Counted from the first letter of the stretch, positions 5,582-10,482 are shown. The stretch: DNA of 32,534 nucleotides from Campylobacterota bacterium (GCA_034723735.1 JAYEPE010000299.1:1-32534); one strand, 5' to 3'. Numbers and translations: made by a program. The notes: generated by a model not told the origin, from the sequence alone.

Positions 5582-5632
5582 AAAGCAAATTTATTTTGAG
5601 TACAATAAGTAAAACCTTTGAAAGTAGTGTTG

Positions 5633-6250
5633 ATGCAGATGAAGTTTAGTCGTGATATTAGCTGTCCACAATGTGGCGATAAATTGCCTTTGCACTTTAA
5701 ATATTCAAAATTAGCACAATGTTATTCGTGTGGTTCGCATATTTTTTTAGAAGATGAGGGTGCTCGACTTGCGGGAAAGCAGTCGGTACTTTCATTGGAG
5801 CCTTCTCTTATCGTACTTAATCAAGATTTTTCATATAATCATAAAACATATACGCCCGTAGGTCATGTGCGTTATGGTGTTGGGCGTAATGTTTGGGATG
5901 AGTGGTGGATTATTGATAGAAATACTAATGGGTATTGGTTGAGTGTAGATGATGGGGATTATGTTATTGAAAAAGAGGTGCCTTTTAATCTGCCACTGTA
6001 TTCACATAGGGAGATTAAACTTGGACAAGAGATAAAAGGCTGGAGTGTTACTGAGTTGGGTGAGGGTGAGTGTTTAGGGTTTGAGGGAGAGCTTCCTGAA
6101 ATTTTAGAACTTGGAGAAAAACACCATTATGCGCATCTCTCCAAATCTTATGGTGAGATGATGACTGTGGAGTTTTTTGGAAAAACTAAAAAACTCTACT
6201 CTGGAAAATGGCTTGATGCCTATAGCATAAGAGCGGCACTATCCTCATGA
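5633..6250 (+). CDS. Zinc-ribbon + DUF4178-like protein
   Basis: CPQCG...CYSCG zinc ribbon followed by a region resembling DUF4178 (GQEIKGWSVTELGEGECLGFEGELPE). The ORF track starts at TTG 5618; in-frame ATGs are at 5633 and 5639. The stop overlaps the next start (ATGA). Confidence 0.6.
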   Translation: MQMKFSRDISCPQCGDKLPLHFKYSKLAQCYSCGSHIFLEDEGARLAGKQSVLSLEPSLIVLNQDFSYNHKTYTPVGHVRYGVGRNVWDEWWIIDRNTNGYWLSVDDGDYVIEKEVPFNLPLYSHREIKLGQEIKGWSVTELGEGECLGFEGELPEILELGEKHHYAHLSKSYGEMMTVEFFGKTKKLYSGKWLDAYSIRAALSS

Positions 6251-7994: not shown

Positions 7995-9371
7995 TTGGTG
8001 ATTGGTCTCTTTATGAGCTCTATGGGAATAGGTTCGTGGCTTTCGCGCTTTATTGAAAAAGATTTAATAAAGGTCTTTATAGAGCTACAGTTATACATCG
8101 CTGTTATAGGTGGTTATAGCGCTGTTATACTTTTTTATGCCTTTGTAGTTATTGATAATTATACCCCTTTTTTATTTCTTAGCACCATTTTAATTGGTGC
8201 AATGCTAGGGGTGGAAATTCCACTTATTATTAGAATACTCAAAGACTATTTTTCACTTAAAACGAATGTGTCAAATGTTTTTACTATGGATTATATTGGC
8301 GCGCTTATTGCTGCTTTGCTTTTTCCGATGGTTTTTTTACCAAAATTAGGACTCTTGCAGACAGGTCTCTTTTTTGGAATGCTCAATGCCTTTGTTGCTT
8401 TGATGAGTTGGTATCTTTTTCGCTCTGAATTGCCTAAGCGTATCTTTTTCTATATTATAGCAACTATGCTTTTTTTAGGTGCAGGGTTTTATAATCTAGG
8501 ACACTATTCTGCTTTTATTGAACATCGGCTGTATCAAGATGATATTGTTTACTCTGAAGCTACGCCCTATCAGAGCATGGTTGTAACTCGTAATGATAAG
8601 CGCTACCGCCTCTATCTTAATGGTGCTTTGCAGTTTGATACTCTTGATGAGTACCGCTACCATGAAGCCCTTGTACATCCAGCCATGATAGCCACGCCCA
8701 AACATGAAAATATTTTGATTATTGGTGGTGGCGATGGTATGGCGCTTCGTGAAGTTTTAAAATATACAGAGGTTAAGGCAGTCACCTTAGTTGATTTAGA
8801 TGCAAAAATCACAGATCTTTTCACTCATAATGTACTTTTGAAAAAACTCAATAGTAGTGCTTTTAGTGATACACGTGTAAATGTTCTTAATCAAGATGCA
8901 TGGAAGTTTTTAGAGCATACGCAAGCACTTTATGATGTTATAATTATTGACCTGCCTGATCCTAACAATGTATCACTCAGTCGTCTCTACTCTAGAAAAT
9001 TTTATACACTTATTCATAATCATCTCTCTTTTGGTGGAGCCATGGTAACACAATCTACCTCCCCAATGTATGCGAGAAAAGCATTTTATAGCATTGTAAA
9101 TACAGTAAAAAGTACTACAATGAATGTTCTGCCTTATCATGTCTATATTCCAAGTTTTGGAGAGTGGGGTTTTACCTTGGCTATGAATCATAATATTATT
9201 CTTCAAGAGAAAAAACTTCCTCAAGATTTACGCTATCTTGATACTGTACAGCTTAAAGCTATGCAAGTTTTTCCTCCAGATATGAGTGTAGTTGATGCCA
9301 AGGTCAATACCTTAGGATTTCATCCTCTAATGCACTATTATAATGAGGGCTGGGCGTATTGGTATGAGTAA
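7995..9371 (+). CDS. Membrane-anchored spermidine synthase-like aminopropyltransferase-family protein; the true 5' end is probably upstream
   Basis: The C-terminal domain has IIGGGDGMALREV, TLVDLD and IIIDLPDPNN (SpeE-fold SAM/dcSAM pocket motifs). The N-terminal half is polytopic. The same frame is open back to 7821 and encodes the family-typical first helix LLFSTFLIAISGLIYELLEGTVSSYFLGDS, but with no ATG/GTG/TTG before 7995. Confidence 0.75.
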   Translation: MVIGLFMSSMGIGSWLSRFIEKDLIKVFIELQLYIAVIGGYSAVILFYAFVVIDNYTPFLFLSTILIGAMLGVEIPLIIRILKDYFSLKTNVSNVFTMDYIGALIAALLFPMVFLPKLGLLQTGLFFGMLNAFVALMSWYLFRSELPKRIFFYIIATMLFLGAGFYNLGHYSAFIEHRLYQDDIVYSEATPYQSMVVTRNDKRYRLYLNGALQFDTLDEYRYHEALVHPAMIATPKHENILIIGGGDGMALREVLKYTEVKAVTLVDLDAKITDLFTHNVLLKKLNSSAFSDTRVNVLNQDAWKFLEHTQALYDVIIIDLPDPNNVSLSRLYSRKFYTLIHNHLSFGGAMVTQSTSPMYARKAFYSIVNTVKSTTMNVLPYHVYIPSFGEWGFTLAMNHNIILQEKKLPQDLRYLDTVQLKAMQVFPPDMSVVDAKVNTLGFHPLMHYYNEGWAYWYE

Positions 9372-10482
9372 TTTTGAAAAAATTAAAACACCTCTATTTA
9401 TCTGTGAAATGACAAAATTAGAAGAAAATCTAAAGCTACTAAAAGATATTCAAGCCCAAAGTGGCGTGAAAATCCTCTTAGCCTTAAAAGGTTTTTCCTT
9501 ACATGTAAGCTTTCCTCTCATAGCAAAGTACCTCTATGGCGCATCTGCAAGTTCGTATAATGAAGTTCGTTTAGCAAAAGAGAAGTTTGCTAAAGAGGTT
9601 CATACCTATTGTCCTGCTTATAAAGATGATGAGCTTGAAGAGATAGCTACTATGAGTGATAGCATCATTTTTAACTCTCTTGCTCAATATGAACGATTTT
9701 ATCCTCAGATTAAAGAAAAAGCCTCATGTGGATTGCGTATTAATCTGGAGATGCCTTTTGACTTGCCAAAACACTGTAATGCAAATCGTAAGCAGAGCCG
9801 TTTTGGAGTGCTAGGAGATACTTTAAAAGAGTTACCTCAAGCTATTGAAGGCTTACATGTACACGCTCTATGTTCACAAAAATCAGATGCTTTTGAGGCT
9901 ATGCTTCATGTACTCGAAAAGCAGTTTTCAAAACACTTACATCAGCTTAAGTGGGTAAATTTTGGAGGAGGGCATGCGCTTACATGTAAAGAGTATGATA
10001 CGAAGCATCTTGTTCAAATCTTAGAAAATTTTCAAAGAAAATACCCAAATCTTACTCTCTATATAGAACCCTCAGAAGCTATAGTTCATGAAACTGGAAT
10101 TTTAGTGGCAAGTGTGCTTGATATTGTCCATAATGAGATTGATATCGCCATTTTAGATATCTCTGTTGAGGTGCATATGATTGATGTGATGCTTACAAAA
10201 AAATCTCCACAAGTACGTGAGCATTCTAAAGAAGGAGAGTATCATTATCAGTTAGCAGGATGTAGTTGCGCGGCGGGTGATATTTTTGGAAACTATAGTT
10301 TTGAAAAACCTTTACAGGTAGGTGATAGAGTTGTTTTTGAAAATCAGATGGCGTATTCTATGGTAAAAAGTACCTTTTTTAACGGTATTAATCCTGCAGA
10401 TATTGCGATAAAAACTTTTGATGGAAATATAAAGTTTGTAAAAGAATTTTCTTATAGTTCCTATTTAGATGGTTTGGGCTAA
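9364..10482 (+). CDS. nspC: Carboxynorspermidine/carboxyspermidine decarboxylase
   Basis: The N-terminus TPLFICEMTKLEENLKLLKDIQAQSGVKILLALKGFS and NFGGGH are typical of NspC/CANSDC (alanine-racemase-fold decarboxylase). ATG at 9364 overlaps the upstream stop by 8 nt; the ORF-track start at 9343 is less likely. Confidence 0.8.
   Translation: MSNFEKIKTPLFICEMTKLEENLKLLKDIQAQSGVKILLALKGFSLHVSFPLIAKYLYGASASSYNEVRLAKEKFAKEVHTYCPAYKDDELEEIATMSDSIIFNSLAQYERFYPQIKEKASCGLRINLEMPFDLPKHCNANRKQSRFGVLGDTLKELPQAIEGLHVHALCSQKSDAFEAMLHVLEKQFSKHLHQLKWVNFGGGHALTCKEYDTKHLVQILENFQRKYPNLTLYIEPSEAIVHETGILVASVLDIVHNEIDIAILDISVEVHMIDVMLTKKSPQVREHSKEGEYHYQLAGCSCAAGDIFGNYSFEKPLQVGDRVVFENQMAYSMVKSTFFNGINPADIAIKTFDGNIKFVKEFSYSSYLDGLG
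9498..9509. repeat. Iterated palindrome copy, CTTACATGTAAG (12/12)
   Basis: Inside nspC, read as L-H-V-S. Confidence 0.95.
9979..9990. repeat. Iterated palindrome copy, CTTACATGTAAA (10-mer exact)
   Basis: Inside nspC, read as L-T-C-K. Confidence 0.95.

Follow-up and report, generated by a model that had tools for sequence, protein, structure and literature searches.

A divergent NspC-family decarboxylase in the place of SpeD in the Campylobacterota variant of an envelope-associated aminopropylation module

Described polyamine-related clusters and the Campylobacterota operon

Membrane-bound proteins with a spermidine synthase domain are encoded in several described gene clusters. Li et al. 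2019 described an association between SpeD, membrane-embedded spermidine synthase (SpdSyn) fusions and DUF350. According to the citations of that study in PMC12803844 and PMC11237479, such fusions play no part in making spermidine or spermine. A survey of phage shock protein (PSP) systems reported a Shewanella operon combining CesT/Tir-PspA, DUF4178, DUF350 and a spermine synthase with seven transmembrane (TM) helices, as well as a mycobacterial variant with DUF4247 and DUF2617 (PMC11237479). In addition, hybrid spermine pathways exist in which the aspartate semialdehyde (ASA) route is combined with decarboxylated S-adenosylmethionine (dcSAM or dcAdoMet) (PMC11999265). Here, we analyzed an operon with features of these clusters on a stretch of 32,534 nt from a Campylobacterota bacterium (GCA_034723735.1 JAYEPE010000299.1:1-32534). 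This whole stretch is referred to as the window, and coordinates are counted from its first letter. This locus represents the form that a widespread envelope-associated aminopropylation module takes in Campylobacterota; as judged from sequence comparisons, a divergent NspC-type decarboxylase with a remodelled substrate pocket occupies the place of the usual SpeD partner.

The operon consists of six genes on the plus strand (5633-10482), which encode two DUF4178 proteins (genes 1 and 2), a small TM peptide (gene 3), a DUF350 protein (gene 4), a membrane aminopropyltransferase (APT; gene 5) and an NspC-like decarboxylase (gene 6). The table of open reading frames (ORFs) and our reading of the sequence match the gene order, the coordinates and the overlapping junctions given in a preliminary description of this DNA. 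The four nucleotides ATGA at 6247-6250 are shared by the end of gene 1 and the start of gene 2. The end of gene 2 (7485) lies beyond the ATG of gene 3 (7472), resulting in a 14-nt overlap, and a spacing of 15 nt containing AAGGAGAG is found between gene 3 and the DUF350 gene, which starts at 7643. Finally, the APT gene, ending at 9371, overlaps by 8 nt with the decarboxylase gene, whose ATG is at 9364. No terminator-like site was found between the operon genes by a consensus scan. Chance does not account for this arrangement: dozens of loci, distributed over many phyla, contain the five-gene core.

Profile searches also agreed with the family assignments made in the preliminary description. 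Pfam matches were obtained for DUF4178 in genes 1 and 2 (43.6 and 55.5 bits, with a cut-off of 25 bits), for DUF350 in gene 4 (45.5 bits, with a cut-off of 26 bits), for Spermine_synth in gene 5 (147.5 bits) and for Orn_DAP_Arg_deC in gene 6 (45.7 bits). The designation of gene 5 as a membrane SpeE-like gene was upheld by its match to the NCBIfam polyamine aminopropyltransferase profile NF002956/PRK03612 (621.6 bits, with a cut-off of 472), which spans profile positions 15-520 of 522. The observation that S-adenosylmethionine (SAM or AdoMet) decarboxylase (AdoMetDC) is not encoded in the window was correct as well: none was detected in the 32.5 kb, either by Pfam on all ORFs of at least 100 aa or by a hidden Markov model (HMM) of class 1b SpeD on the six-frame translation. 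Pfam scans of these ORFs did not reveal a saccharopine-dehydrogenase-family ORF that would correspond to carboxyspermidine dehydrogenase (CASDH) in the window, nor were genes for PspA, CesT/Tir, SPFH/band-7, DUF4247 or DUF2617 found there.

How does this operon compare with the described clusters? It shares with the clusters of Li et al. 2019, as these are cited, the polytopic SpdSyn fusion, the adjoining DUF350 gene and a decarboxylase gene within the cluster. However, the decarboxylase is an NspC-family enzyme dependent on pyridoxal phosphate (PLP) instead of the pyruvoyl enzyme SpeD, and its gene is located at the 3' end, over the APT stop codon, whereas the commonest position of speD is upstream of DUF4178. 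The PspA-associated polyamine operons likewise unite DUF4178, DUF350 and a SpeE-like protein with seven TM helices in one operon, together with a small membrane protein or lipoprotein partner. In contrast to these, the operon in the window contains an additional NspC-like gene, has a duplicated DUF4178 with zinc ribbons, and lacks PspA and CesT/Tir. The hybrid ASA/dcAdoMet pathways are similar in that an NspC-family decarboxylase and an APT are encoded in one genome, but they use canonical CASDH and carboxyspermidine decarboxylase (CASDC) in combination with AdoMetDC and a soluble APT. In the window, the APT is fused to a membrane domain, neither CASDH nor AdoMetDC is seen, and signature residues of CASDC have been lost. 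The envelope-related E. coli yjfIJKLMC-type operons (PMC11237479) also associate DUF350 with an enzyme of polyamine type; this enzyme, however, is an ATP-grasp ligase resembling glutathionylspermidine synthetase and not an APT, and these operons contain no DUF4178 and neither type of decarboxylase. Thus, the link between DUF4178, DUF350 and membrane SpeE, which the preliminary description had presented as known, is not new, because this type of operon is already contained in PMC11237479. What is newly seen is the phylum-specific presence of a remodelled NspC-family decarboxylase where SpeD normally stands.

Decarboxylase genes beside the membrane aminopropyltransferase

At E<=1e-30, the family of the membrane APT comprises 1073 protein clusters (50% identity). 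When genomes were scanned with a diverse APT alignment, 80 loci from many phyla were obtained; up to 10 kb was examined on each side of every locus and the neighbourhood ORFs were clustered. The recurrent cassette has the order optional SPFH-like gene, class 1b speD, DUF4178 (one gene or two), small TM peptide, DUF350 and membrane APT. According to the SpeD HMM, class 1b SpeD is encoded within 10 kb in 39 of the 76 loci that are not from Campylobacterota. When only loci of other phyla with full flanks were considered, speD was present in 25 out of 44, and in 16 of these 25 it is located upstream on the same strand.

A different situation was observed in Campylobacterota. The SpeD HMM did not detect SpeD in the fetched flanks of the seven Campylobacterota genome loci, including the window, or in those of the Campylobacterota-type metagenome loci. 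Instead, an NspC-family gene is present in 18 of the 20 informative Campylobacterota-type loci, namely the window, L001-L006, L105 and ten metagenome loci, and with the exception of L001 the NspC-like ORF overlaps the APT stop codon in all loci that bear it. Conversely, NspC was not found beside the module in any of the 76 loci of other phyla. The coupling of the SpeE-like and nspC genes noticed in the preliminary description is therefore real and conserved, and its question of whether such modules pair with NspC or with SpeD has a divided answer: NspC accompanies the module in Campylobacterota-type loci, and in other phyla it does not, SpeD being the partner found there.

Several other features of the distribution may be mentioned. 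In 30 loci of other phyla (within L008-L080), the surroundings of the cassette include a gene for an SPFH-like protein of about 345 aa, usually just 5' of speD; by inspection, one representative looks like a band-7/SPFH protein with a SHOCT-like tail. The SPFH-like gene is absent from all Campylobacterota-type loci. In L085 the full module is followed by a convergent two-component system. In a reduced Campylobacterota variant (L108/L109, 9773-11512, and L102), a ResB/CcsA gene for cytochrome c biogenesis is followed immediately by the genes for DUF350 and the membrane APT, whereas DUF4178, the small peptide and the NspC-like gene are lacking. The nearest homologues of the DUF4178-TM protein and the APT outside Campylobacterota are from sulfur-oxidising Gammaproteobacteria (Thiotrichaceae, Thiolinea and Ca. 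Venteria), and the nearest modules outside the phylum, such as that of Thiolinea, have neither decarboxylase gene adjacent. In L105, a Sox gene cluster abuts the module. These observations hint at an exchange of the module among sulfur oxidisers.

Decarboxylase pocket and aminopropyltransferase domain

Gene 6 (9364-10482, plus strand) encodes a divergent PLP-dependent decarboxylase of the NspC family of 372 aa. It is 44% identical to the carboxynorspermidine decarboxylase (CANSDC) of C. jejuni, 3N29 (E-value 6e-95), and scores 424.5 bits against the nspC model TIGR01047, barely over the cut-off of 409. Lower scores were obtained for other module-linked proteins, with 386 bits for the close relative in L001 and 289-310 bits for the Sulfurovum type, both under the cut-off, whereas canonical Campylobacterota NspCs scored 529-631 bits. 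The module-linked decarboxylases are monophyletic. Their clade comprises the window group (59-100% identity) and the Sulfurovum type (about 40%) and is the sister group of 95 canonical Campylobacterota NspCs. No synteny common to canonical and module-linked nspC genes was seen in an orthology check.

Compared with canonical NspC/CASDC enzymes (C. jejuni 3N29, C. leptum 9EAF; PMC11866407, PMC10599626), gene 6 encodes the same fold with the same PLP residues and the Asp of the specificity helix. The PLP-binding Schiff-base Lys, the stacking His, the EPxEA Glu, the catalytic Cys and the phosphate Tyr are kept in all 32 module-linked decarboxylases. Gene 6 differs in that the equivalents of E183, Y293, D342 and H345 are replaced, the active-site flap is changed and the HMM score is 100-200 bits lower. 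The substrate-signature residues E183, D287, Y293 and D342 (Sll0873 numbering) are reported to be completely conserved in carboxyaminopropylagmatine decarboxylase (CAPADC), CANSDC and CASDC (PMC10599626). Gene 6 retains only D287 of these four and has Ser, Lys and Asn at the positions equivalent to E183, Y293 and D342, respectively. The equivalents of E183, Y293 and H345 are each lost in 32/32 members of the module-linked clade, and that of D342 is Asn in 22/28 members of the window clade. In canonical NspCs, by contrast, all four positions (E183, Y293, D342 and H345) are conserved in 95 out of 95. In addition, the flap sequence Y-N-P-C has become C-N-[P/A]-N clade-wide (CNAN in the window), with Cys in 32/32 and Asn in 31/32. 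Since these residues are newly conserved throughout the clade, they would argue for a changed function and not for decay. The identification of gene 6 as NspC in the preliminary description was thus right as regards the family, but with three of the four signature residues lost and the flap altered, the protein is not a typical carboxy(nor)spermidine decarboxylase.

There is a precedent for the recruitment of an NspC-family enzyme to a new substrate within a dedicated cluster. FslC, the N-citrylornithine decarboxylase, belongs to this family (NCBIfam NF041039; PMC7857480). The FslC model, however, matched gene 6 weakly (24.9 bits, with a cut-off of 500), so that gene 6 represents a different subfamily, and the context of the FslC cluster, siderophore synthesis, is unrelated.

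The same data bear on the possibility that the synteny has no functional meaning, in which case a housekeeping nspC gene would lie downstream of an acquired module, be co-transcribed with it by accident, and have diverged through lineage drift. Such a situation would fit the facts that every NspC-linked locus belongs to one clade, that L001, L085 and L102/L108 show an interrupted linkage or none, and that many modules in other phyla do not have any adjacent decarboxylase. Yet the overlap with the APT stop codon has been kept across lineages in which the NspC-like proteins share only about 40% identity, the replacement residues, among them the flap Cys and Asn, are conserved in a manner that does not resemble drift, and positions that are invariant in 95/95 canonical enzymes are changed in 32/32 module-linked ones. 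We consider it unlikely that the association is accidental.

The transferase with which this decarboxylase is linked has remained constant. Gene 5 (7857-9371, plus strand) encodes a polytopic membrane domain of about 215 aa fused to a dcSAM-type APT domain, about 504 aa in total, of the PRK03612 family. The AlphaFold2 (AF2) model has a pLDDT of 93.3, and its top Foldseek matches are the Thermus triamine/agmatine aminopropyltransferase (TAAPT; 1UIR/3ANX), thermospermine synthase (6BQ2) and Pyrobaculum SpeE (7XIF). These structural matches concern soluble APT domains only; no solved full-length homologue of the membrane APT was found. The protein contains the Asp of the GGGDG motif (Asp101 of T. 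maritima), the equivalents of the catalytic residues Asp170 and Asp173, and the Q, DE and YHE motifs. All homologues compared (100/100) share GGGDG, DLPDP and the remaining catalytic residues without change; D293, D365, D368, Q259, D264, E265, Y268, H269 and E270 are unchanged in all of them, the window included. Donor-site residues are invariant in 20/20 Campylobacterota and 41/41 SpeD-linked proteins. Of the 136 positions conserved in SpeD-linked APTs, 113 are kept in the Campylobacterota APTs, and the 12 clear Campylobacterota changes are all conservative and outside the catalytic motifs. With the donor and catalytic residues unchanged, the enzyme appears, by comparison, to carry out the same dcSAM-type chemistry as in the SpeD-linked systems.

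This constancy is relevant for a scheme in which the order of the two reactions is reversed, the membrane SpeE-like protein moving the 3-amino-3-carboxypropyl group from SAM to an amine and the NspC-like protein then decarboxylating the product. Chemically this would be neat, because the product would resemble carboxyspermidine and hence the native substrate class of NspC; it would account for a window without SpeD and CASDH, and the Asp that binds a terminal amine is retained. On the other hand, the GGGDG Asp reportedly leaves too little room in the cavity for the SAM carboxylate, as described together with the roles of other SpeE residues (PMC1282579), and the donor site is invariant in the Campylobacterota and SpeD-linked proteins alike, the catalytic domain having no clade-specific changes. 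We regard the reversed order as very improbable. SAM as the aminocarboxypropyl donor of the APT was likewise rejected as unlikely, because the donor-site residues, including the GGGDG Asp, are invariant.

A further alternative is a hybrid pathway, in which gene 6 makes (nor)spermidine and the membrane APT elongates or conjugates it at the membrane with dcSAM from a SpeD encoded elsewhere. Hybrid ASA and dcAdoMet pathways exist (PMC11999265), the APT domain most resembles APTs of the triamine/agmatine and thermospermine types, which act on longer amines, gene 6 passes TIGR01047 and keeps the terminal-amine Asp, and Campylobacterota generally use CASDH and CASDC. However, the known hybrid pathways pair soluble APTs with AdoMetDC, and neither AdoMetDC nor CASDH was found in the window. 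Moreover, an APT with identical catalytic residues is paired with SpeD elsewhere, such fusions are reported, as Li et al. 2019 is cited, to play no role in spermidine or spermine synthesis, and three of the four CASDC/CANSDC signature residues are lost in gene 6. A hybrid pathway therefore seems doubtful to us, and on the same grounds, namely the pairing with SpeD, the published finding on such fusions and the atypical NspC, the earlier suggestion of an APT that follows a normal NspC and acts on (nor)spermidine is not supported.

The mutual exclusivity of SpeD and the NspC-like protein, the unchanged dcSAM-type APT and the remodelled pocket are most simply accounted for if the NspC-like protein is the dedicated decarboxylase of the module. 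We consider the evidence to be evenly poised as to whether it is a neofunctionalised partner of the module and not a housekeeping carboxy(nor)spermidine decarboxylase. More specifically, and only as a tentative proposal, it may be a PLP-dependent SAM decarboxylase that has displaced SpeD and supplies the membrane APT with dcSAM in Campylobacterota without an apparent SpeD. SAM and carboxyspermidine share the 3-amino-3-carboxypropyl moiety, so that displacement of SpeD by a PLP enzyme is chemically reasonable. In the proposed mechanism, SpeD would have undergone non-orthologous displacement by the NspC-like PLP enzyme, which would decarboxylate S-adenosylmethionine to dcSAM; the membrane APT would then pass the aminopropyl group of dcSAM to an acceptor at the membrane, probably one that is not a polyamine. 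The DUF4178 proteins, DUF350 and the small peptide would be conserved accessory subunits or possibly the acceptor. If this were true, the NspC-like protein would be the first non-pyruvoyl AdoMet decarboxylase.

A number of points weigh against this interpretation. We know of no PLP-dependent AdoMet decarboxylase that has been described, and the AdoMet decarboxylase activity of the NspC-like protein is a prediction. Gene 6 does exceed the 409-bit cut-off of the nspC equivalog model. All module-linked decarboxylases (32/32) have kept the specificity-helix Asp, D287 in Sll0873 and D276 in ClCASDC, to which the terminal amine of carboxyspermidine binds, and their substrate may therefore be amine-tailed. 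As to the distribution, 19 of the 44 full-flank loci of other phyla have no adjacent speD, the APT and NspC-like genes of L001 are 2.3 kb apart, and in two Campylobacterota-type lineages (L085; L102/L108) NspC does not adjoin the APT. In addition, the association with NspC comes from a single phylum and the loci are therefore not independent, and SpeD, canonical NspC or CASDH may be encoded elsewhere in these genomes, beyond the window and the locus flanks that were searched.

The replacement of SpeD by a remodelled PLP decarboxylase next to an untouched transferase would constitute a natural experiment. The substrate of the NspC-like enzyme would show whether a second, unrelated enzyme class makes dcSAM, and its identity would also constrain what the membrane system needs. 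It bears, moreover, on the source of the donor in those Campylobacterota that have aminopropyltransferases and no recognised SpeD. To our knowledge, Helicobacter and Nautilia have SpeE but no recognised SpeD; by extension, NspC-family enzymes might be the source of dcSAM in such Campylobacterota. A literature search on Sulfurovum polyamine genes and on H. pylori SpeD yielded nothing usable.

A separate observation concerns L110 (9001-14328), a Campylobacterota contig on which a canonical NspC (563 bits against TIGR01047) is encoded 3.4 kb 5' of a soluble SpeE of 277 aa, with no SpeD visible in the 19 kb that were fetched. Given this arrangement, an APT accompanied by NspC and no obvious SpeD may be general in Campylobacterota.

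Two predictions of the membrane topology of the APT differ. Application of the positive-inside rule to residues 1-215 (7857-8500) of 100 homologues resulted in a model with the N-terminus inside, seven TM helices and the C-terminus outside. With the C-terminus outside, the catalytic domain would be located on the non-cytoplasmic side, separated from dcSAM. The AF2 secondary structure disagrees with this picture: it contains one continuous helix of 54 residues (134-187) where two TM helices had been assumed in the topology count.

Translation of the APT gene in this genome also deserves attention. Its frame is open from 7821, after the TAG at 7818-7820, and has no ATG, GTG or TTG before 7995. 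A canonical start (ATG, GTG or TTG) is present in all 22 relatives examined, 7-17 codons ahead of the TM1 motif. The window has TTA at 7860-7862 (plus strand), where relatives start the APT with TTG or ATG; the closest ones carry TTG at exactly this position. Because the start codon reads TTA, expression of the APT in this genome is in doubt. The missing start could reflect mutation of the start codon, an error in the sequence or initiation at a non-canonical codon. In the first case the operon might have decayed locally, being no longer fully functional in this genome, whatever its role in relatives: no start codon is available between the stop at 7818 and 7995, and starting at 7995 would delete TM1. 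Nevertheless, the frame of 504 codons is otherwise intact with all conserved residues present, the single G-to-A change could be a sequencing error, and translation could still be allowed by an ATT at 7851-7853, which overlaps the DUF350 stop codon, or by re-initiation after that stop. Local decay appears improbable to us.

Remaining operon members and surroundings

A TATAAT hexamer at 5576-5581 (plus strand), read from the sequence 52 nt 5' of the ATG at 5633, is a putative -10 box of the operon. The consensus scan, which was uninformative overall, did not list a two-hexamer promoter at this position. Gene 1 (5633-6250, plus strand) encodes a cytoplasmic protein of 205 aa with a zinc ribbon (CPQC...CYSC motif) and a DUF4178 domain (PF13785). 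A TTG at 5618 is an alternative start, and the gene is conserved 5' of the module in many phyla. Gene 2 (6247-7485, plus strand; 412 aa) encodes a zinc ribbon and a DUF4178 domain (PF13785), followed by a TM helix, a beta-sandwich ectodomain, a second TM helix and an acidic tail. Both DUF4178 proteins open with a CxxC...CxxC zinc ribbon, whose four Cys residues are invariant in gene 2 (35-40 homologues). In the AF2 model of the gene 2 product (pLDDT 91.6), helices 228-254 and 375-407 flank an all-beta domain (258-371), and the DUF4178 domain is rich in beta structure. Foldseek searches of the PDB returned only generic beta-sandwich matches for the ectodomain (the collagen-binding domain, CBD, of ColH, and GOLD) and no match for the DUF4178 domain.

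Gene 3 (7472-7627, plus strand) encodes a single-TM peptide of 51 aa that ends in Lys. It has no Pfam or NCBIfam match, but jackhmmer identified homologues in 47 loci across phyla, located between the DUF4178-TM gene and DUF350. Common to the family are a central S-V/I-R-x-G/N-S/P-G motif and, at the C-terminus, a Lys that does not vary (...GK, ...VK or ...HK). That the peptide would be a candidate acceptor or anchor for the APT is pure speculation. Gene 4 (7643-7855, plus strand), preceded by AAGGAGAG, encodes a two-TM protein of 70 aa of the DUF350 (YjfL) family (PF03994); DUF350 is located directly 5' of the APT gene in 66 of 83 loci.

Upstream of the operon, a gene resembling transposases associated with repetitive extragenic palindromic (REP) sequences is located at 3857-4615 (Y1_Tnp, tyrosine type; NF047646, 72.5 bits, under the cut-off of 80), followed by a Fic/DOC gene at 4608-5330. 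Together they are situated between a Mem_trans gene and the operon, and in the syntenic locus L001 a DUF805 gene takes their place. Three copies of GAGAGGGTGT(CAGG), possibly REP-like repeats, are present at about 5445-5480. A reading of the region as a defence system was discarded, the PADLOC models having given only one match, of 13.3 bits and at chance level.

Methylthioadenosine (MTA) is the by-product of aminopropyl transfer. A protein of 190 aa of the PNP_UDP_1 family is encoded at 10983-11555, 0.5 kb 3' of the NspC-like gene, with weak matches to MTA/S-adenosylhomocysteine (SAH) nucleosidase and futalosine hydrolase. Rather than an MTA nucleosidase, this protein is more probably MqnB, a menaquinone enzyme. 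A similar gene is found near the module in L002. Further downstream, on the minus strand (23404-25354), a Phage_rep_O-like ORF (27.6 bits, just under the cut-off) and two ORFs without an assigned family are located beside genes for PA14, a PMT-like glycosyltransferase and GtrA, and this region may be the remnant of a small mobile element.

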